Shown piece by piece: positions 1 through 31,996 of a DNA stretch of 32,000 bases (positions are counted from its first letter, which is position 1; the number at the start of each line of letters is the position of its first letter). This DNA comes from Ignicoccus hospitalis KIN4/I. GTDB lineage: Archaea; Thermoproteota; Thermoprotei_A; Sulfolobales; Ignicoccaceae. Both the position numbers and the translations under genes were made by a program. The DNA is taken from positions 750,001 to 782,000 of the forward strand of contig NC_009776.1 of assembly GCF_000017945.1 (NCBI RefSeq), given 5' to 3'. A model generated the notes under the pieces. It was given only the letters and a program-made list of their open reading frames with translations, ran no database searches and was not told the origin of the DNA.

Positions 1-2881
1 GCTAGTGGCCGCGTGGCCGATTAATTTGACCCTGACTTACGAGAACCCTGAAGCGGCGGCGAACCTTCAGCTGCCCTACCTCAAGGTCTCCTTAAGCGCT
101 GATTACGACCCGATATCCATGTCCTTGAGAAACGTGAGCGTTGCGGTGGACGCGGGGAGCGCCGAGGCGTCGAGGGCCGCTAAGGCGACTATAGTTTCGT
201 ACTTGAACGGGTGCGACCTAGCGCTCAAGGCCCCTCTGCTCGTGGTCTCCGAGTGTCTGTTGAACTCCGTGAAGGACATTATATCGATGTCACTGTTGAA
301 GTTTAGAGTCCTCGACTTGAGGGTCGGGAGCGACCTAACTGGGGTCGCCTACGCGAGCGAGGCCTCGGAAGTCACAGCCGTGGTTGCGGGAAAGGAGCTC
401 AAGGGCTTATCGCTCTACCGCGCAAAGGCCCTCGGGGGCGGACCGGAGGAGCGGGTAAGCGCGGCCCTCTCCGGCGACAAGGCCTACTTGCGCCTCGAAG
501 GGGCCTCCGGGCCCGCGGGGGCGCCCTCGCCTTACGCGCTAGCGCGGTGGCCCGGAGGGGCGGGCGTCATATCCTTGACTTCGGAGCCTTTGGTGGAGCC
601 CGTGATATCGGGTAACACGGTCTTCTTCAAACTGCCCATCGTGAGGTACTTCTTAGGTTTAGAGAAGGAGGGAGGGAGCTACTTCTACTACTTCGTCCCC
701 CCTAGGGACAGGGTGACCCTCCCCGCGGGCAACTTCAGCTTGACCTTGGGCGGCGCCGAGAGGGGGCGGGTCAAGGCCGCTTGCGCCTTGAACGTTGCGG
801 TCCTAGCTAAGGGGACTTACTCAATAGTTCTGAGGTCTCCGTCCTACGACGTTAAGGTAAGGGCCGTCCCCTTCTCATATGTGGCCGTGCCGACCCCTTG
901 TAACGGTTTGGCCGCCCTAAAGGTTAACGACTCCATTGCAATATTGAACCTAACAGAGGTCGCCAATAAGAACGTGGTCGTAGTGCCCGAGCCGGGCGCG
1001 TTGAGGCTGGTGAGGATAAATTCGACCGAGCCCTTCGAGGTGGTAGTAGGCAAGAGGGCGGTCTACTGTGACGCCAAATGTTATGCTCTGCTGCCGCCCC
1101 GCCAAGTGGCCTTACAAGCCGTGTCCGCGCTCAAGGGGACCACGACCTCGCTGATAATACCTCCTAGCGCGGAGGAGGTTGCGCTTTCGTTCCCGCCGGC
1201 GCCCCCCTCCAAGGGTTGCTTGGTCAAGCTGGTCTCCCCCTCGCCGGTTGAGGTAGAGGTCCAAGCGGGCCAAGCGGTCTTCAGCCTGCAAGTCACGAGG
1301 ACCCCGACTACCGTAGTCTTGCCTTGCGGCGAGGAGGTCAAGCTAAAGGTAGGTAGGTACGAGGCCCCGTTGAGGGCCTCCTCCGGCGAGTGGGTCTACT
1401 TGTGCCCCAGCCCCTATGCGCTCTCCGGCGAGAGCATCAAGATAAACACGACTATGAGACCTCCGATAAGCGTGAGCTGTGACGGAGGTCTCACGTGGGC
1501 GCTGGTAAACAACAGCACGTTCACATTCGTCAAGCCGAAGTACGCCTACGTCCTCCTTAAGGCCGTGGACTCGAACGGAAACAGCTTAGAAGTCATTATA
1601 CCAGAAGGTATAAAGGAAGTTAGCTTGAAGCCCGAGGGCGGAGGGAGGCGGACGGTCAAAGTTCCGTTGGGCGACTTGGACACCCCGGTGAAGGTGATCC
1701 TAAGGGGTATCCAGGAGGGACTGGTGACCTTGAGCAACGGGACCGCGAGCTTGAGCTACTACGTCAACGGCACGGCTTACGTGATGATACCCCGTCAGTG
1801 GGCCTCCCAGAAGCTTACCTTCAGCGTGACTACCCCCGAGGGGGCGTTGGCCAACACTACCTTGCCCCCGTTGGCCGCGGGGGAGAAGGTCACTCCGATA
1901 TATGCTATAATAAACAAGACTATGAACGTTAACTACTACAGCTTGAGGGTAGTGGTGGAGAGGGGCGGGGAAGAGGTTACTGTCCCGCTGACAGTCAACG
2001 GGGAGAAGGTTATAGTGAACGGCAGCGCGACGTTCGTCGTGCCCACCGAAGTGGTGACCTTAGAGCTCGACGGCAAGGTGGTGAAGGCCCTCGCCAACGG
2101 AGGGACGCTCGTGCTCAGGCTGCCGCCCCAGACCTCCACGGAGCTGACGGTCCCGGTATCGGTGGAGCTGTACGAGAATTGGAAGCCGGCCGAGGGCCTG
2201 GTGGAGTTCCGCCTGAACAACTTGACGTTGACATACCCCGTGCGGGAGAAGGCGACCGTACTCTTGCCCCCAGACGCCTTAAACGCTACGATGAAGATGC
2301 TGGTGATCGAAAAGGACAGGTCGTGCGAGGTGGCGCTGCCGCCCTTGCTCACAGCGCTCAACAACGAACAAGTGATCTCAAGCATAGCGGCCCAGCCGGG
2401 CGACGGGACGTGTTACGTGTACAAGATAGTTGTATTGGAAAAGAGGGGCTACTTCGAGAGGTTAGCCAACGCGAACGTGACCGTGGACGGGAAGAAATTG
2501 GAGGTCAAGGGTTCCTTGATACTCGTCTACGACAAACCCGCGCTCGAGGTGAAGTTGGGCGGGCAGTCTTTGAGGGCCTCTGCGGGGGGTACGGTGTACT
2601 TGTACGTAAGGCCCGAGGAGCGGGTCGAGAGGAACGCCACCGTGACCGCGCCCTCGGTAGCGTTGAGCTTGGCGAACGTCACGGAGAGGTGGAACCCGGT
2701 GGGCGAGCTCCCGGGGATCCTGAGCTTGAGCGCTGGCATGTTACTGGCCTTGGGAGTGATGAACTCTGTGGAGCCCTCCACTCCGTTATACGCGGCGGCC
2801 TACGCGGTGGCGTCGTTGAGCTTCTTGCTGGGCCTCGTAACAGCTACTATGGTACTCTTGAAGTACTTCTCTACAGGATGA
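1..2881 (+). CDS. Large membrane-anchored, N-glycosylation-sequon-rich extracellular protein (S-layer or surface glycoprotein-like), probably 5'-truncated by the window edge
   Basis: The ORF is open to the window edge, with no in-frame stop before the GTG at 5. It has about 19 N-x-S/T sequons (NLT, NVS, NFS, NDS, NST, NTT, NGT, NKT, NGS, NAT, NVT) and a Val/Thr/Pro-rich composition. Two C-terminal hydrophobic helices are present (GILSLSAGMLLALGV and LYAAAYAVASLSFLLGLVTATMVLL). No enzymatic motif was seen. Confidence 0.7.
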   Translation, partial: LVAAWPINLTLTYENPEAAANLQLPYLKVSLSADYDPISMSLRNVSVAVDAGSAEASRAAKATIVSYLNGCDLALKAPLLVVSECLLNSVKDIISMSLLKFRVLDLRVGSDLTGVAYASEASEVTAVVAGKELKGLSLYRAKALGGGPEERVSAALSGDKAYLRLEGASGPAGAPSPYALARWPGGAGVISLTSEPLVEPVISGNTVFFKLPIVRYFLGLEKEGGSYFYYFVPPRDRVTLPAGNFSLTLGGAERGRVKAACALNVAVLAKGTYSIVLRSPSYDVKVRAVPFSYVAVPTPCNGLAALKVNDSIAILNLTEVANKNVVVVPEPGALRLVRINSTEPFEVVVGKRAVYCDAKCYALLPPRQVALQAVSALKGTTTSLIIPPSAEEVALSFPPAPPSKGCLVKLVSPSPVEVEVQAGQAVFSLQVTRTPTTVVLPCGEEVKLKVGRYEAPLRASSGEWVYLCPSPYALSGESIKINTTMRPPISVSCDGGLTWALVNNSTFTFVKPKYAYVLLKAVDSNGNSLEVIIPEGIKEVSLKPEGGGRRTVKVPLGDLDTPVKVILRGIQEGLVTLSNGTASLSYYVNGTAYVMIPRQWASQKLTFSVTTPEGALANTTLPPLAAGEKVTPIYAIINKTMNVNYYSLRVVVERGGEEVTVPLTVNGEKVIVNGSATFVVPTEVVTLELDGKVVKALANGGTLVLRLPPQTSTELTVPVSVELYENWKPAEGLVEFRLNNLTLTYPVREKATVLLPPDALNATMKMLVIEKDRSCEVALPPLLTALNNEQVISSIAAQPGDGTCYVYKIVVLEKRGYFERLANANVTVDGKKLEVKGSLILVYDKPALEVKLGGQSLRASAGGTVYLYVRPEERVERNATVTAPSVALSLANVTERWNPVGELPGILSLSAGMLLALGVMNSVEPSTPLYAAAYAVASLSFLLGLVTATMVLLKYFSTG

Positions 2882-9944: not shown

Positions 9945-10142
9945 GTGGACCCCAAGAGGCTAATCGAGATGGAACTCGAGAAGCTAGAGCTTGAGATAAA
10001 GAGCTTGGAGAGGAAGCTCAAGCTGTTAGAGCCCATAGCCGAGGAAGACGAAGAGGCTAGGTTAGAACTGATAGGTACTAAGGCCCTCCTCAACTTGTAC
10101 CGGAGCGACGCCCAGAAGCTGGCCGAATTCCTAACAAGCTAA
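9945..10142 (+). CDS. Small coiled-coil protein (hypothetical, about 65 aa)
   Basis: The sequence is VDPKRLIEMELEKLELEIKSLERKLKLLEPIAEEDEEARLELIGTKALLNLYRSDAQKLAEFLTS, which is heptad-like and charged. The start could be the GTG at 9945 or the ATG at 9969. Its 3' end overlaps the convergent hydrolase gene by 53 nt. Confidence 0.35.
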   Translation: MDPKRLIEMELEKLELEIKSLERKLKLLEPIAEEDEEARLELIGTKALLNLYRSDAQKLAEFLTS

Positions 10143-10869
10143 GCCTATCCTTATACGACGGGAACTCCCTCCATTCTTCTATTTTATCCTTATCGAGCTC
10201 GGTTACGAGGAGTCCCTCGCCCTCGCCTAAGGTCGTTTCTCCCTCGGGCGTGGAGGAGGAGCTCCACCCGCCGAAGGGCCCGTGGAGGCCCTCTCCCCAA
10301 CGGTTAACCCCCAAGACGTAGCTCGAAGCCTCCACCGCCCTGGCCCGTAAGAGCGTGCGCCAGTGCTCCTTCCTCGAGGAGGGCCACGCGGCGGGGACCA
10401 CCAAGGCCTCGGCGTCCAGCACCCGCGCGAACAGCTCCGGGAACCTCAACTCGTAGCATATCAAGACTGAGAACTTTAGGTCCTTAAGGTAGAACGTGGT
10501 TGGGGGTTCGCCCCTCGCGAAGGTCTGGTGTTCCCCCATGGGCTCGAACAACATGAACTTCTTTCTGACGTGGAGCACGTCCCCGTCGCGGACGATCAAA
10601 TATGAGTTGTAAGTTTTATCTCCCTCGAAGTAGGTCGCGCCCACGCCTATAGCTACTCCGTCGCTCAGCTCCTTTATGCGGTTAACAGCCCCGCGCACGT
10701 CTTCCTTAGAGGGTATCGAAAATCCGGTCAGGGAGAGCTCGGGGGTGAAGGCAGCTTCCACAGAATAATGTTCAATAGCGTACTTCAATGATGCCTCAAT
10801 TCTCTTTAGGTTAGCGTGTACGTTCCCGTCCGTTACCTTCATCTGGACTAAGGCGACGCGCAAGCCCAT
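10090..10869 (-). CDS. Carbon-nitrogen hydrolase (nitrilase superfamily)
   Basis: An E-K-C triad context is present: AAFTPELSLTGF, HVRKKFMLFEP, VLICYELRFPE. I placed the start at the ATG at 10869 (MGLRVALVQM), the typical family N-terminus. The upstream 51 codons of the track ORF look non-coding. Confidence 0.8.
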   Translation of the reverse strand: MGLRVALVQMKVTDGNVHANLKRIEASLKYAIEHYSVEAAFTPELSLTGFSIPSKEDVRGAVNRIKELSDGVAIGVGATYFEGDKTYNSYLIVRDGDVLHVRKKFMLFEPMGEHQTFARGEPPTTFYLKDLKFSVLICYELRFPELFARVLDAEALVVPAAWPSSRKEHWRTLLRARAVEASSYVLGVNRWGEGLHGPFGGWSSSSTPEGETTLGEGEGLLVTELDKDKIEEWREFPSYKDRLSLLGIRPASGRRSGTS

Positions 10870-11028
10870 GTCCCCCTTAGGTTTCCGGAATGACGATTTA
10901 TTTTCCAAGCAAGCTCTGCAGCTCCACCTAGAGAAGGGGGTATATTTTATGAGAAATCTAGATCTAATATAGGCAACGTCTATACCTATATTCACATATC
11001 TGTCAAAAAGCCCGGCGCACAAAGTCCG
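10870..11028. promoter_or_regulatory. Divergent promoter/operator region between the C-N hydrolase and the PadR regulator
   Basis: This is an A+T-rich 159-bp spacer. On the minus strand, AAAATAAATC (10895-10904) lies 27-35 nt from the hydrolase ATG. On the plus strand, a purine-rich AGAAGGGGG precedes TATATTTTAT (10941-10950), which is BRE/TATA-like. Overlapping palindromes ATCTAGAT (10956-10963) and TAGATCTA (10959-10966) follow, and a second TATA-like TATACCTATATT sits at 10981-10992. Confidence 0.4.
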
Positions 11029-12708: not shown

Positions 12709-13188
12709 GTGAACAAGAGGAAGGAGAAGGGCAAGTCCCACTCAAAGAGGCCCGTGAGGAATACCCCGCCGCGCTGGGTGCCCTTCGGCCCCGAGGAGAT
12801 CAAGGCGCTAATAGTGGAGCTCAGCAAGAAGGGCTACGGACCCTCGATGATCGGAATAATATTGAGGGACCAGTTCGGAGTCCCTCTGGTAAAGCCCATC
12901 GTGGGCAAGAAGCTAGTAAAAATAATGGAAGAGCAGGGCGTCGCCCCTCCGATACCGGAGGACCTCTTCCACTTGATGAAGAGGGCAGTGAGGGTCAGGG
13001 CTCACTTGGCCGAGCACCCCAAGGACAAGCACTCCGCTAGGGGACTAATGGAGATAGAGTCCAAGATAAGGAGGTTAGTCAAGTACTACAAGAGGGTCGG
13101 CAAGCTGCCTCCGGACTGGAAGTACGACCCGGAGAGGGCGAGACTTCTTGTCCAGCAGTACTCAGCGCTCTTCGAGTCCGGAGCTTAG
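12709..13188 (+). CDS. rps15: 30S ribosomal protein S15 (uS15, S13e type)
   Basis: The N-terminus KGKSHSKRP...PPRWV and the stretch [26 protein letters not shown]...[11 protein letters not shown] are typical. The start codon is GTG. Confidence 0.9.
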
Positions 13189-14497
13189 CCTCGTCCAATT
13201 TTTGAAGAGCCACGAGGACGCGGCCTCACAGAAAGTGTTGGAGAAGGCTCTCGAATTCGTCGACTCCTTAAAGGACTACGGGTTTGTTAGAGTATACGCC
13301 TCCCCTACCTTCGAGGAGCTCGTAGCGGCCTCGCAGCTTCAACAGACCCTCGAGAACAACTCGATAAAGGCGATAGTAGACGTTTTCCCATTTAGGGAGC
13401 CAGACAATCAGTCTCCCCTCATAACCTTGGGCATGCGCGCGCCTAAGAGGAGCGGCCCCACGCTTGAGATAGTCCCCAGCCAGCCCTTGGTCACCGAAAA
13501 TAAGGTCAGCTTCTGGGTCAAGAACGCCAACTCTAGCACGATAGTAATAAAACTGCTTGAGGAGAGGTTCGTAGTTAAGGACGACCACAAGATATTCTCT
13601 ATAATAGCGTCTTACGCGGCCGAGGAGAACCCCCTAGAGGGCTTGACTTACCTAATAGTTGAGTCTTTGAAGGTAGCGAATATAGTTAAAGAAGACATAA
13701 CGTTCTCCTTGTACAAGTGGAAGAGCCTGCCCTTGTGTCACTCCGTGGCTTACACTGCCGTGCCCTTCTTCGTATCCTTGGCCGCCTCGCCTGAGAAGGT
13801 CTGCAATTACTTGAAAGAGAACAAAGTAGATATAGACGAGACTACTAGTATAAGGGACCTAATGCAGAGGAAGGAGAGCGAGGAGCTGGTCGAAATAATA
13901 AAGTTGTTAGTCTCCTACTTGGAGGAGGTCAGCAAGAGGCCCAACAGGGACCCCACGGAAATAATAGACCGAGGGGTGGAGCTGGAGGAGGAGGTCCTCA
14001 AGGAGAGGAAGCTCCCCCGCTCTCTGGTTCACGGCTTCAAGCAAGCGACCTACGTATTCCTAACAACGATAGACTTGAGCGCGTTCCACGTGATAGCCCT
14101 GCCCGCGCTGTCTTACTACTTCTACCGGGCAGACGAGCTCTACGTTAGCAGCGTTAGGTTCGCCGCGAGGGAGTTGCCGAACTCGCTCATAGGTTCCAAG
14201 ATAATAGTCCAGAGCGGCAAGAAGTTGACAGTGCTACCCTTAGATCAAGTCCCCCCTTCCCCCACTTTGCTCTACAGGATGGTAAGGGACTACGGCGTGG
14301 GGAGGGACGTGGGTCACGTAGTAGTGTTCAAGGTGGGCAAGAACGTCTTTATACCGATAGATTCTATAAAGAGAAGTGGTTTGGACTTGGAGAGGAGCGT
14401 GAGGAGGGCTGTGGAGGACGGTTGGGAGATAAGAGGAGGCTCGTTGGTGGCCGAGGACGAGAAGCTTGAGCGAGTCAAGAAACTGTTGTTCGGTTAA
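13148..14497 (+). CDS. RecJ/Cdc45-like protein with a degenerate DHH active site (candidate crenarchaeal Cdc45/RecJdbh); otherwise hypothetical
   Basis: The size (about 430-449 aa) and the position directly after rps15 match the archaeal RecJ/GAN neighbourhood as I recall it. No DHH or DxD catalytic motifs are visible. The region where motif I would sit reads [16 protein letters not shown], and the C-terminal IRGGS only faintly resembles the DHHA1 GGGH. The start is uncertain among the TTG at 13148, the TTG at 13202 and the GTG at 13235. Confidence 0.4.
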
Positions 14498-28558: not shown

Positions 28559-29194
28559 CTACTCCTCCTCGATTAAAGGTACGAAGGCTACAGGCAGCAG
28601 CTTCTTTATTACATATCCCTCCGGAGTCTTGATTATCTTGTAGAGTACTTGATATCCCGGCTCCTCCTCCACTGGGATCACCATTATTCCCCCCACCTTG
28701 AGCTGCTTCAAGAGGGCCTCTGGAACCCTCTTCGCCGCGGCAGTTACTATTATCTTATCGTAAGGGGCGGCGGGCGGGTAGCCCTTGCTTCCGTCGCCCA
28801 CCAGCACGGTGACGTTGTTGTATCCCAACGCCTTTAGCCTCTCCCTCGCGCGCTCGGCGAGCTCGGGGATCCTCTCTATAGTATAAACGTGGCCCTCCGG
28901 CCCCACCAGCTCTGCCATTACGGCCGCGTGGTAGCCAGAACCCGTGCCCACCTCTAGGACCTTGTCGCCCCTCCGCAGCTCGGCAGCCTCGACCATGTAA
29001 GCGACCATGTGGGGCGCACTTATCGTCTGTCCCGCCCCTATCGGAAGGGGGGTGTCCTCGTAGGCCATGTGTCGGAGCTCCTCCGGAACGAACAGCTCCC
29101 TGGGCACCTTCATCATCGCTTCGGCTACTTCCTTCCTCTTTATGTAACCTTCAGCGATCAAGTTCCTTATCAATTCCCTCTTCTTCTCCTCCAA
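28559..29194 (-). CDS. pcm: Protein-L-isoaspartate O-methyltransferase
   Basis: The motifs QTISAPHMVAYMVE and the SAM-binding VLEVGTGSGYHAAVMAE are present, and the 211-aa length fits. Confidence 0.9.
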   Translation of the reverse strand: MEEKKRELIRNLIAEGYIKRKEVAEAMMKVPRELFVPEELRHMAYEDTPLPIGAGQTISAPHMVAYMVEAAELRRGDKVLEVGTGSGYHAAVMAELVGPEGHVYTIERIPELAERARERLKALGYNNVTVLVGDGSKGYPPAAPYDKIIVTAAAKRVPEALLKQLKVGGIMVIPVEEEPGYQVLYKIIKTPEGYVIKKLLPVAFVPLIEEE

Positions 29195-29275
29195 GGCCTC
29201 ATCCGAGGAACTCTTTCGAAGTAGTTACTTAAGAGATGTGGAGCGTCCGAGGGTAGGTGTCACAGTTTGAGCATA

Positions 29276-29310
29276 TCCTTGCCCTCCGCACCCCAAGTCT
29301 CCTTGCCCTC
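29276..29310 (+). repeat. 11-nt perfect direct repeat TCCTTGCCCTC x2 (29276-29286 and 29300-29310, 24-nt period)
   Basis: I read this directly from the sequence. It lies in the G+C-rich stretch between pcm and the A+T-rich Met-rich ORF. If the long ORF from 29267 is real, the repeat encodes SLPS twice. Confidence 0.6.
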
Positions 29311-29350
29311 GGGGGGTAGCGAGAGCCTAGTTACGGGCGTGATAAAGACT

Positions 29351-29626
29351 ATGGCAGACGTTATGACCAAAATGGCAATAATGATGAAAGATATGTACAC
29401 GTTAACTAAAGAGATGCACGACATTATGTTGGAGATGGCAAAGACAAACAAAGAGATACTGAAAGACATAAGACTTCTCATGAATGAGACGACGAATGAG
29501 ATGGTACATTCAATGAAAACGATGGACGCAATGATGTCCACAGTTATGCTCTACCAGCAGTTAATGCTAATAATGATGATTGTTGTTGTCCTAATTTTAG
29601 CGTTCTTAGTACTGCGGGGCGGGTAG
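29351..29626 (+). CDS. Methionine-rich small tail-anchored membrane protein (no recognised family)
   Basis: The 91 aa from the ATG at 29351 read MADVMTKMAIMMKDMYTLTKEMHDIMLEMAKTNKEILKDIRLLMNETTNEMVHSMKTMDAMMSTVMLYQQLMLIMMIVVVLILAFLVLRGG. There are 19 Met and a 3-4 hydrophobic spacing over about 68 aa, followed by a TM helix. GTGAT (SD-like) lies 8 nt upstream. The ORF ends 8 nt before hisS. It is also open from a TTG at 29267, and an antisense ORF (29260..29541) is open too, so strand and start are unproven. Confidence 0.45.
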   Translation: MADVMTKMAIMMKDMYTLTKEMHDIMLEMAKTNKEILKDIRLLMNETTNEMVHSMKTMDAMMSTVMLYQQLMLIMMIVVVLILAFLVLRGG

Positions 29627-29634
29627 GCGAGGCC

Positions 29635-30924
29635 TTGAAGCTGGACCCCGAGCCGCTCAGAGGGTTCAGAGACCTCTTCGGGGAAGAGGCGGAGGCGTTG
29701 GAGGCGGTCACCGAGGAGGCGGAGAAGCTGGCTAGGAACTGGTCCTTTGAAAGGTGCTACTTACCCACGGTGGAGCGCTTCGAGCTCTTTGCCATGAAGA
29801 GCGGTGTGGAAATAGAGAGAAGTATGTACGTGTTCGTCGACAAGGGCGGAAGGAAGGTCACCCTCCGACCGGAGGCCACGGCTTCCGCAGTGAGGGCTTA
29901 CTTGAGGTTGTTGCGTCCGAGGCCCAAGCCGGTGAAGCTCTTCACAGTAGTTAACGTCTTCAGGTACGATGAGCCTCAGTTCGCGAGGTACAGGGAGTTC
30001 TACCAAGCCGACTTCGAGGTCTTCGGGGCCTCGTCGCCGTACCAAGACTCGGAACTCTTGACCATGCTCCACGAGTACTACGAGAACTTGGGGCTCCCCC
30101 ACGAGATACTCCTCGGCAGCGTTAAGGCTCTGAGGGGCGTCCTGTCCGAGGAAGGCATAGAAGAGAGGGACCAAGACGTGGTCCTTCACTACGTAGACAA
30201 AGGCATGATAGATAAGGCCTTGGAGCTTGTGGAGAACAAGGCGAGGAGGCCGGAGAGGGCCAAGGAGGCGGTCGCCGTATTGTCGACCAAGGAGGGGGGC
30301 GAGGAGGTAATCAAAGAGGGGAAGGAGTTGATGGAGTCTTGGGGCTACAAGTACCGTTTCGAGGACTTAGAAGAGGTGTTGAAGTATCTCCCGGATGACG
30401 TGAAGAGTGTAATAAGGTTGAAGTTGGGCTTCGCCCGCGGCTTGGCGTATTACACTGGTTTAATTTATGAAGTAAGGGTGCCGGGGTTCCCGGTGTCGGT
30501 GGCCGGAGGGGGGAGGTACGACGCGCTCACGGAGGTTTACGGTTGGGAGAGGGTGCCGGCGACAGGCTTCGCCATAGGTTTGGACAGAACCGCCCTAGCG
30601 TTGATGAAAGAGGGAAGGAGGTTCGTGTTCAGACCAACCGTCGCCGTGTTGCCCTTAGCCGAGGAGGCGAGGAAGGTAGCCTTAGAGGTCCAGAGGGAGC
30701 TCGCCTCCTTAGACGTAAACTCCTTCTTGCTAACCGAACAGAAGAGTATTAAGAAGGCACTTTCCTTTGCCTCTTCCATGAATGCTAAGGTTGCTATAAT
30801 AATAGGGAAGAAGGAGGTAGAGGAGAATAAAGTTACCATAAAGAACTTGGAAAAGGGCCTCCAAGTGAGCTGCGGGCGGGCGGAGCTGTTGGACTGTTTG
30901 AGCGAGACGTTGAAAACTCCGTGA
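29635..30924 (+). CDS. hisS: Histidyl-tRNA synthetase
   Basis: Class II motifs are present: LRGFRD N-terminus, [16 protein letters not shown] (motif 2), GGGRYD and GFAIGLDR (motif 3). A C-terminal anticodon-binding domain follows. The start codon is TTG. Confidence 0.9.
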
Positions 30925-31514
30925 GCGAGAACAGCTCTCGGGGGACGCTCTTGAGTTTAGAGAAGCTGGGTCCCGGGAAGGACGCCCCCGAGGTCGTTAA
31001 CGTAGTGATAGAAATACCTATGGGAGGCTACGTCAAGTACGAGATGGACAAAGATACTGGGTTAATAAAGGTGGACAGAGTGCTCTACACCGCTATGTAC
31101 TACCCCTTCAACTACGGCTTCATACCGGGCACGCTGGAAGAGGACGGCGACCCCGTGGACGTCTTGGTCCTGAGCTACGACCCCTTCTACCCCGGCACCT
31201 ACCTAAAAGCCAAGCCGGTCGGCGTGCTCCTCATGGAGGATGAAGAAGGTCCCGACAGCAAGATTATCGCCGTCCCGGTGGAGAAGGTCGACCCGAGGTT
31301 CAAGGACATTAAGGACGTCAACGACATACCACAGATAATAAAGGACAAGATAAAACACTTCTTCGAACACTACAAGGAGCTGGAACCCGGCAAGTGGGTC
31401 AAGATAAAGGACTGGTTACCGAAGGAGGAAGCTTACAAGAAAATAAAGGCGGCCATCGACCGGTATCAACAAAATAAGCGCTCGAGCGCCCTAACGAGCG
31501 GGCAAGGGCAGTGA
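30921..31514 (+). CDS. ppa: Inorganic pyrophosphatase (family I)
   Basis: The core motifs are [17 protein letters not shown]...[24 protein letters not shown]...DSKIIAVP. The GTG start forms a GTGA overlap with the hisS stop. Short N- and C-terminal extensions flank the roughly 175-aa core. Confidence 0.9.
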
Positions 31515-31996
31515 TAACCTACGACGTACTCATTTTAACTCTCAGCGGAGTGCTGCTCGCCCACGGGTCCTTCGAGGTCCCCGCGGGGGACTTGTCGTGG
31601 ACCTTCTTCTACCCGTGCCCTCGCTGTGAAAACGTATTGGAGGTTATGTTAACTCCCCCGGAGAAGTTCTTGAACTTCGAGGGCGGAAAGTACGTGGGGC
31701 CCGGGGCCTTGGGCTTCCCAAACGGCATAATACCTTGTAACAAGTACGAGGTGGTTGAAGGGGGCGTCAAGTACTTGGTCTGCGCCCACAAGAACGTAAT
31801 CGTGTACGAGCGCTACCTCAAGGACTTCGCAGTACAGGTGAGCCTGAAGCCCACCTTAAAGGCCCTCGAGCTGGTACCCTTCGTCACCGACCCAGCCAGT
31901 CCTGGCAGTAAGGCAATAGTATCGTTCTTAGCGGCGCTCATAGCCACCTTTTCTGCGGTCGCTTTCCTAAAAAGGCACGAGCTGGTGGTGATGTGA
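31511..31996 (+). CDS. Hypothetical secreted or membrane-anchored Cys-containing protein
   Basis: It has an N-terminal hydrophobic segment ([14 protein letters not shown]), the Cys-containing stretches CPRC, PCNKY and LVCAHK, and a C-terminal TM helix ([19 protein letters not shown]). The GTG start forms a GTGA overlap with the ppa stop. No family was recognised. Confidence 0.5.

Follow-up and report, generated by a model that had tools for sequence, protein, structure and literature searches.

The question raised by this locus is what, if anything, is encoded by a sharply A+T-rich patch that lies between the divergent gene for protein-L-isoaspartate O-methyltransferase (PCMT, gene pcm) and the gene for histidyl-tRNA synthetase (hisS) in the archaeon Ignicoccus hospitalis KIN4/I. 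We examined the patch within a stretch of 32,000 nucleotides (contig NC_009776.1, positions 750,001 to 782,000; hereafter the window, in whose own numbering positions are given). The original prediction, made from the letters of this stretch, had described a Met-rich mini-protein of 91 amino acids (aa) read from an ATG at 29351 on the plus strand, and its counts proved exact when repeated. The interval 29341-29580 contains 89 G+C in 240 nt (37.1%) and is even the lowest 240-nt stretch in the window (mean 56.5%; next-lowest region 41.7%), compared with 76 of 120 (63.3%) at 29641-29760 on the hisS side. The open reading frame (ORF) 29351-29626 specifies 91 aa, among them 19 Met (20.9%), no Cys, Trp or Pro, and two His, placed in M-H-D-I-M and M-V-H-S-M and thus in the predicted M-H-x-x-M and M-x-H-x-M contexts. 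Its codon usage is as atypical as had been proposed, with Lys encoded by AAA six times and AAG once versus 104 and 484 times (18% AAA) in the other window genes, and with a synonymous-codon log-likelihood 7.2 standard deviations below the expectation from window usage (z = -7.2). Other window genes average 1.6% Met, and the best 60-aa stretch reaches 23% Met here versus at most 10% in any other ORF. As argued below, the patch lies within a complete small gene at 29267..29626 (+), with 119 codons plus a TAG stop, whose product is predicted to be a Met-rich, tail-anchored helical protein.

Relatives of this gene proved to be few. A word-index homology search with the 91-aa protein as query gave no match, and the window's own protein is missing even among 15 billion collected proteins. 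The window's ppa protein was likewise found only on a 4-kb Logan contig (ERR9765744) and its hisS, at 100% identity, only as a 364-aa fragment; public collections thus scarcely cover the source organism. When 1.84 billion cluster representatives were searched exhaustively with phmmer, a single match was returned, P0001 (121 aa, E = 1e-13), encoded on a 146-kb metagenome contig on which the gene order is that of the window: VWA/metallopeptidase-like (-), PCMT (-), small ORF (+), hisS (+) and ppa (+). The P0001 protein is also encoded by the metagenome-assembled genome (MAG) JAADDE01, where it is labelled 'hypothetical protein'; a profile search of genome contigs recovered only this MAG, and two scans of metagenome contigs gave no match. 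Further orthologues were collected through the neighboring gene, by following relatives of the hisS protein to their contigs and inspecting the pcm/hisS interval there. The best hisS matches were 75-57% identical and included Ignicoccus pacificus DSM 13166 at 62%, the nearest named relative by hisS, with Hyperthermus and Pyrodictium next among named organisms at ∼45%. A small plus-strand ORF was present between PCMT and hisS in loci L004, L005, L006, L007 (I. pacificus DSM 13166), L009, L010, L011-13, L014 and L015/16. The I. pacificus copy is found in CP006868, within 962867-972141 and directly 5′ of hisS. There are 11 distinct orthologues, all placed between PCMT (-) and hisS (+) and mutually alignable, and the hisS proteins of these 11 syntenic lineages are 60-75% identical to that of the window. 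In L008, where hisS is 57% identical, neither PCMT nor a small ORF adjoins hisS. The orthologues fall into three subfamilies, a long form of 119-125 aa to which the window protein belongs, an I. pacificus type of 141-147 aa and a short form of 80-85 aa. No paralogues of the small protein appeared in the phmmer or profile searches, and a literature search on Ignicoccus tail-anchored proteins and Met-rich coiled coils found nothing on the family. By this comparison of loci, the gene is limited to I. pacificus and a few of its uncultured relatives from vents, each time in the pcm/hisS interval, and we regard its products as a lineage-restricted orphan membrane protein family of Ignicoccus-like hydrothermal-vent archaea.

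The same loci bear on whether the ORF is a gene at all. One explanation for the island, also offered in the original prediction, is an A+T-rich insert that is non-coding or was acquired recently and whose ORFs are fortuitous; an element of a replication origin or promoter would be a related reading. The lowest G+C content in the window and the atypical codons noted above are what such an insert would be expected to show. However, a conserved syntenic plus-strand ORF is found in 11 lineages, and frame +1 is the only frame open from end to end in all 11 distinct loci. Among pairs of long forms, the proportion of nonsynonymous differences (pN) is 0.19-0.35 versus a saturated proportion of synonymous differences (pS) of 0.65-0.83. 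This is the pattern of selection seen for hisS and pcm, with a protein rate ∼1.5-2 times that of hisS (hisS pN ∼0.19). The open plus frame in 11 of 11 loci, the excess of pS over pN and the shared synteny together identify the small ORF as a genuine plus-strand gene. No match was obtained for the whole window with Rfam (at gathering thresholds) or a tRNA scan, a phage nucleotide search and a scan of viral contigs found no relative of the small gene, and the deficit of G+C at third codon positions (GC3) described below is common to all long forms. We therefore give the insert reading almost no credence, and conclude from the comparison of loci that 29267-29626 (+) is an old, vertically inherited protein-coding gene that is conserved but unnamed. 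A replication origin with an A+T-rich unwinding element was dropped as a candidate as well, since the region consists of a conserved ORF on which purifying selection acts; as for the direct repeat TCCTTGCCCTC in its DNA, this simply reflects the duplication of SLPS in the encoded N-terminal segment.

The opposite strand of the locus also carries an ORF, of 93 aa, at 29260..29541 (-). Its frame (-2) is interrupted in five of the 11 orthologues, with 49 codons left in L002, 30 in L005, 43 in L006, 38 in L009 and 33 in L011, so that it is not the minus-strand ORF that orthologous loci conserve, and by this criterion it is a by-product of composition and no gene. The antisense frame is open solely in Met-rich members of the family, which implies that gene callers can choose the wrong strand at the pcm/hisS locus. 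A case in point is MAG GCA_054020855.1 (L014), for which the public call is an antisense ORF of 124 aa at 630-1004 (-), and the family member is an uncalled ORF of 141 aa at 649-1074 (+).

In one respect the original prediction has to be revised, namely the start codon. Conserved protein sequence extends 5′ of the ATG at 29351: the motif P-S-L-G-x-A-E-x-x-L lies upstream of it and is common to long and short forms, and LVTGVIKTM (residues 21-29 of the 119-aa ORF) is invariant in the long forms. A TTG at 29267, 84 nt upstream of the ATG, aligns with a TTG in L002, L005 and L006, and a TTG start is kept in four of the five long forms. This upstream conservation, together with the conserved TTG, defines the gene as 29267-29626 with 119 aa; the ATG at 29351 is very probably not the true start, and the next TTG, at 29279, is a conceivable alternative to the one at 29267. 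The N-terminal extension gained with the TTG start holds four Pro. A Shine-Dalgarno-like AGGTG is located at 29255..29259 (+), 7 nt 5′ of the TTG, and its GGTG is kept 6-8 nt from the TTG in L002, L005 and L006.

The architecture of the 119-aa product was then read from hydropathy, from periodicity and from AlphaFold2 models. Residues 1-17 (M/L-SISLPSAPQVSLPSGG; 29267..29317, +) form a Pro/Ser/Gly-rich segment that is predicted to be disordered, with a predicted local distance difference test (pLDDT) value of ∼49, and in the alignment of 12 sequences P14 is invariant and P9 nearly so. The motif LVTGVIKTM (29327..29353, +) is the most conserved in the family, holds the invariant K27 and marks the membrane-distal start of the helix; ATAAAG within this region is invariant in the DNA alignment. 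Residues 18-98 (29318..29560, +) form a predicted amphipathic helix with 16 Met, 9 K+R and 11 D+E and a heptad-like periodicity of 3.55, and its polar face is made of T/S/N in addition to K/E/D. This helix is followed by the transmembrane (TM) anchor LMLIMMIVVVLILAFLVL at residues 99-116 (29561..29614, +), which is supported by hydropathy and by an AlphaFold2 helix colinear with the stalk and which is found in all orthologues. The gene ends with the tail RGG and the TAG stop (29615..29626, +); the orthologues end in W/Y-R/K-x-L/V-x-G/S/A, so the window protein is without the aromatic residue and 2-3 residues shorter. The C-terminal hydrophobic anchor had been noticed from the start, and residues 98-116 (mean Kyte-Doolittle hydropathy 3.15) are indeed the sole strongly hydrophobic segment, which is C-terminal in every subfamily. 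No signal peptide is present, the N-terminus being Pro/Ser-rich without a hydrophobic core. A single TM segment within ∼30 residues of the C-terminus, without an N-terminal signal, is the operational mark of a tail-anchored protein, and this layout is the same in 12 of 12 sequences.

The helical part had been described originally as a recurrence of hydrophobic positions at 3-4 residue spacing, and this description stands: the hydrophobicity spectrum peaks at 3.55 residues in all eight members tested, a peak reached by 0-1 of 2000 shuffles for the long forms and by 30 of 2000 for the short form. Read from the column listing of the alignment, residues 22-57 appear as five perfect heptads in which position a is mostly Met, d is V/I/L/M and e is hydrophobic as well, with stutters later on. 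For the window protein, AlphaFold2 (run with a six-sequence alignment) gave one helix spanning residues 18-118 with pLDDT 74-91 (mean pLDDT 78.8), and for an I. pacificus-type member one helix spanning residues 29-143, with the N-terminus disordered there too. Relative to the long form, the I. pacificus type contains two insertions of exactly 7 aa, and the short form lacks ∼36 columns of the Met-rich middle, a deletion that is not exactly placeable and leaves ∼35 helical residues. The invariant residues are P14, K27, K41 and Q97, the last directly preceding the anchor; N61 is conserved in the five long forms alone, the I. pacificus type having M at this position. We consider a single long helix with a C-terminal anchor to be a prediction with good support.

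The explanation that we favor, at somewhat better than even confidence, is that the small protein is a tail-anchored coiled-coil stalk or tether, whose helix would lie in the cytoplasm, associate in parallel with its own copies and present its tip away from the membrane. The protein would be bitopic, beginning with a disordered Pro/Ser-rich N-terminus of 17-28 aa, then the conserved tip motif P-S-L-G-x-A-E-x-x-L-x-T-G-V-I-K-T/S-M, then an uninterrupted amphipathic helix of ∼35-95 residues, and last a TM segment that would continue the same helix and end in a tail of 3-6 residues. Because there is no signal peptide and 20 charged residues stand ahead of the anchor, we infer that the protein would be inserted into the membrane post-translationally with its helix left in the cytoplasm, as tail-anchored proteins are. 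Tail-anchor chaperones of the Get3 type have been reported from Euryarchaeota and Crenarchaeota (PMC6593721). The helix would pair with its own copies into a parallel coiled-coil stalk ∼12 nm long, with a core whose a, d and e positions are filled by Met along with V/I/L, and the heptads and the 7-residue insertions and deletions (indels), together with the width of the a/d/e seam, point to a bundle of at least three strands. Such a stalk could change freely in length, as it would in the two or more indels of exactly 7 residues that separate subfamilies, with the tip motif, a membrane-proximal Y/V/L-Q and the anchor held constant. A variable stalk between a constant tip and a constant anchor points to a role as a stalk or tether that holds the tip at a set distance, toward a hypothetical partner, as the most likely one.

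Several observations weigh against this reading. A periodicity of 3.55-3.6 suits a straight amphipathic helix lying on the membrane about equally well as it suits a stuttered coiled coil. The only basic residue adjacent to the anchor is C-terminal to it (R/K after W/Y), which by the positive-inside rule weakly favors the opposite orientation. Finally, Met is kept at a few positions by subfamilies whose identity is only ∼24%, which leaves room for a role specific to Met.

The first of these points leads to the main rival, which we nevertheless consider unlikely: an in-plane amphipathic helix of 80 residues that would lie flat on the cytoplasmic face of the membrane, insert its Met side chains between lipids and sense or shape curvature or lipid packing, in the manner of apolipoprotein-, perilipin- or PspA/Vipp1-like helices. 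A spectral maximum at 3.55-3.6 and not exactly 3.5, a hydrophobic face wide enough to take in a, d and e positions, and a polar face rich in T/S/N besides K/E/D would all suit such a helix, as would the highly dynamic membranes of Ignicoccus (PMC5468417). Against it, the first 36 helical residues form five perfect heptads, and the length of at least two indels is an exact multiple of 7 aa, which is relevant to the register of a coiled coil and not to a surface helix. In addition, the helix modeled by AlphaFold2 is colinear with the anchor without a hinge, and no conserved G/P break precedes the anchor.

Whether the Met residues themselves are what selection has kept can be judged from the orthologues. 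Counted without the initiator at non-ATG starts, Met numbers 19 in the window protein, 19 in L004, 13 in P0001, 11 in L005 and 9 in L006 among the long forms, 19 in both I. pacificus (L007) and L010, and 1-2 in the short forms, so that Met content ranges from 1% to 16% among orthologues. Conservation of Met is accordingly partial. In the cluster MKTMDAMM (residues 83-90; 29513..29536, +), the nine long and I. pacificus-type genes all have ATG for M89 and M90 and eight of them have it for M86, and ATG is kept in seven of nine at positions 72 and 104. Elsewhere, at 12 or more of the 19 positions, ATG alternates with codons for Leu (CTN/TTG), Val (GTN), Thr (ACN) or Ile (ATH), and no orthologue keeps either His of the window protein, the residues found instead being Y, N, T, G, K or E. 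From these substitutions we regard Met as mainly a residue of the hydrophobic face, together with a small conserved cluster, M-K-T-M-N/D-S/A-M-M.

This pattern bears on two functions that the original prediction had proposed for the Met residues. The first is that of a Cu(I)/Ag(I)-binding Met(/His) protein, in which thioethers at i, i+3, i+4 and i+7 on a helix face or in an oligomer core would bind the metal, comparable to SilE/PcoE or to the Met rings of Ctr1. The window protein taken by itself would fit, with its 19 Met, its MxxM, MxxxM and MM spacings and two M/H pairs, and Met is kept at 72, 86, 89 and 90 across subfamilies only ∼24% identical. However, replacement of both His, exchange of at least 12 of the 19 Met for L/V/I/T and the 1-2 Met of the short forms speak against such a family function, as do the missing signal peptide (SilE and PcoE are located in the periplasm; PMC5008109), the lack of any family match and the lack of metal-resistance genes among the scanned window ORFs and orthologous loci; we rate it as highly unlikely. 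The second proposal is a sacrificial Met sink, whose surface Met would scavenge membrane oxidants and be recycled by methionine sulfoxide reductase. The very high Met content and a divergent neighbor, PCMT, that is a protein-repair enzyme would agree with it. Yet the named relative is an obligate anaerobe (PMC5468417), Met varies from 1% to 16% among orthologues and is exchanged for L/V/I/T, its place is on the hydrophobic face where it is buried, and no msr gene occurs in the annotated parts of the window, so that we find this proposal scarcely plausible. A metal-binding or oxidant role, if present, would be an add-on of the Met-rich lineages; as a family function it is unsupported.

How, then, did the island arise? 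The 91-codon part has 39.2% G+C, and the same amino acids encoded with window codon usage would have 45.9%; amino-acid composition thus accounts for about 60% of the G+C deficit, and a synonymous codon choice shifted toward A+T for about 40%. GC3 of the non-Met codons is 0.53-0.67 in all long forms versus 0.75-0.76 in hisS. Measured against the consensus of the remaining long forms, the gene in the window (29267-29626) shows 34 GC-to-AT and 17 AT-to-GC changes and the L004 copy (951-1328) shows 28 and 17, and the other three lineages are balanced. We suggest that the extreme Met content of the window protein is mostly lineage-specific drift, arising because A+T drift was joined to single-base steps from L, V or T to M at positions that need only hydrophobicity. 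Met richness and the A+T island would then be partly one phenomenon, a local A+T drift in a fast-evolving gene. In the window lineage and L004 the small gene drifts toward A+T, while its probable operon partner hisS keeps a high GC3.

Turning to the neighbors of the small gene, pcm (28559..29194, -; Pfam PF01135 at 1.5e-77) is the divergent upstream neighbor in each orthologous locus, and hisS (29635..30924, +; Pfam PF13393 at 1e-50) begins 8 nt past the small-gene stop. In the orthologues this distance is -4 to +2 nt, such that the genes touch or overlap, versus 8 nt in the window; by this spacing the small gene and hisS are probably one transcript and possibly coupled in translation. The C-terminal tail of the window protein is likewise shortened, to L-R-G-G where orthologues show, for example, W-R-V-L-V-G; the shortened tail and the 8-nt gap suggest a recent change at the gene junction. 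A leader or attenuator peptide for hisS was considered and dropped, the protein having only two non-conserved His, a length of 80-147 aa and a conserved membrane anchor. The spacer between the divergent pcm and small genes is 72 nt in the window and 57-85 nt across all loci. It contains, at 29225..29236 and assigned to neither strand, a TATA-like box, TTACTTAAGAGA, with a palindromic CTTAAG core that is equidistant (∼36 nt) from the pcm start (29194, -) and the TTG at 29267. The aligned position reads TTTAGATTAAG in L002 and L005 and TTTAGAATAAT in L006, ∼30 nt upstream of the GGTG, and the box may be a shared or bidirectional promoter element.

Other features of the window were noted in passing. 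Two consecutive unannotated ORFs (∼161-167 and 155-158 aa) follow ppa in every orthologous locus, with only a faint Pfam match to TrmB; the pair is conserved in the same syntenic block, at window 31511-31996 (+), L002:12236-13205, L004:3205-4176 and L005:5881-6866. The ORFs at 5-2881 (+; 958 aa) and 13148-14497 (+; 449 aa) match no Pfam family at E up to 0.001. The second-lowest G+C content (∼42-43%) is found at 10760-11000, over the 5′ end of a carbon-nitrogen hydrolase ORF at 10090-11022 (-); the Pfam domain of this hydrolase begins only at residue 55, which implies that the listed start may be too far upstream.

The analysis thus turns an odd A+T-rich patch into a defined and testable gene family, whose start and strand are now corrected and whose 11 orthologues include one from I. 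pacificus DSM 13166, which can be cultivated. We describe it as a new, narrow and unannotated family of predicted tail-anchored helical membrane proteins with an unusual Met-rich core. Current annotation misses the family, its members being 'hypothetical protein' or nameless and one MAG having the antisense ORF called instead. A conserved coiled-coil protein with a predicted tail anchor is a rare case among prokaryotes, and a helix of ∼80 residues with a largely Met core, in an organism living near 90°C, would be an unusual natural 'Met zipper'. For genome scanning, the locus illustrates that a sharp compositional island with aberrant codons can be an old vertical gene, the signal here coming mostly from amino-acid composition and otherwise from local A+T drift. 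The lineage of the family is, moreover, the only archaeal one noted for a dynamic endomembrane system, of which no tethering or fusion factor is known. This link is circumstantial, and the family would become highly interesting only through a demonstrated part in the membrane dynamics of Ignicoccus or in the binding of soft ligands.

As the original prediction had found by eye, the protein belongs to no recognized family. No Pfam, NCBIfam or PHROGs model reached threshold for the window protein or eight family members, and the sub-threshold matches (IKKbetaNEMObind, IMD, BORCS6, SlyX, prefoldin, SlaB and tape-measure proteins) are generic coiled-coil noise. A profile search of the PDB returned only designed helical bundles and helices of chemoreceptors (MCP) at E 0.0025 or weaker, and a Foldseek comparison of the single-helix model with the PDB was uninformative (best E 8.6).

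Known Met-rich proteins offer one comparison. Like SilE and PcoE (PMC5008109), the window protein is small and prone to form helix, and its Met and His are spaced at i, i+3 or i+4. SilE, however, has a 20-aa periplasmic leader and no membrane anchor, carries repeated conserved MxxHxxxxxHxxM and HxxMxxxHxxM motifs and is encoded in metal-resistance operons (PMC5008109). The small protein differs in having no export signal, two non-conserved His, Met mostly exchangeable for L/V/I/T and a pcm/hisS context, and no metal-efflux or resistance domain was found in the scanned ORFs of the 32-kb window or of a 20-kb orthologous locus. A second likeness is to hydrophobic binding surfaces lined with Met. 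The M domain of SRP54/Ffh has a Met-rich hydrophobic binding surface known as 'methionine bristles'. The groove of Get3 (helix 8) is an amphipathic helical surface lined with Met (PMC6593721). The small protein shares with both an amphipathic helical face with flexible Met side chains, but SRP54 and Get3 are soluble globular GTPase or ATPase domains with 5-10% Met, to which the lone anchored helix, with Met as high as 16-21%, has no homology.

In overall layout the protein can be compared with synaptobrevin/VAMP: 119 versus 116 aa, a Pro-rich disordered N-terminus, ∼60-75 heptad residues, a C-terminal anchor and a tail of few residues, likewise without a signal peptide. One explanation for the family is accordingly a SNARE-like fusogen or tether, a coiled coil the size of a brevin that would zipper with copies or partners on an apposed membrane in the fusion or constriction of Ignicoccus endomembranes. 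What recommends it is this synaptobrevin-type layout (disordered Pro-rich start, ∼75 heptad residues, C-terminal anchor, 119 aa), an argument from architecture alone, and a range that coincides with the Ignicoccus lineage, in which there are sites of membrane fusion or constriction and unexplained tethers with no known fusogen (PMC5468417). The sequences, on the other hand, give no sign of relationship. No SNARE, synaptobrevin or syntaxin profile in Pfam appeared at E up to 10, either for the window protein, which matched three sub-threshold non-SNARE families, or among the 25 families shown for eight members. The family alignment scored probabilities of only 0.7% against VAMP2 and 0.4% against syntaxin-1A H3+TM in hhalign, below 1% in both cases. 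No central Q/R zero layer is conserved in the family alignment, the invariant helix residues being K27, K41 and Q97, with Q97 at the membrane boundary. Nor did the searches made find the paralogues that might serve as partners. The length of the SNARE motif is fixed at 53 residues, whereas the helix of the small protein varies from ∼35 to ∼95 residues among orthologues, the short forms having only ∼35, and the L008 relative keeps neither pcm nor the small gene beside hisS. The originally proposed SNARE-sized tail-anchored coiled coil thus stands as to its amphipathic, heptad-like helix and its C-terminal anchor and fails as to SNARE membership in the tests run, and we hold a SNARE-like fusogen to be quite unlikely.

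The stalk reading has counterparts nearer in taxonomy. SlaB of Sulfolobales and tetrabrachion of Staphylothermus marinus are long parallel coiled coils with a C-terminal TM anchor in hyperthermophilic Thermoprotei, a combination predicted here as well. One family member matched NCBIfam SlaB below threshold (E = 0.008), without significant homology. Ignicoccus is not known to have an S-layer. Its cells possess an outer cellular membrane instead of the usual envelope (PMC5468417). SlaB and tetrabrachion are large, secreted with a signal peptide and outward-facing, whereas the small family has 80-147 aa and no signal peptide. The core of tetrabrachion has nonpolar cavities that take up S8 (PMC6555900). 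Set beside these systems, the family might, though we think it very unlikely, be an invention of the Ignicoccus lineage, a brevin-like tail-anchored tether or fusogen of its unusual endomembranes that would be an analogue of SNAREs arisen independently of the eukaryotic ones, or, in a variant of the same idea, a Met-lined helical barrel built from the a/d/e core, in which a sulfur-reducing cell would keep soft ligands, Cu(I) or S8 for example.

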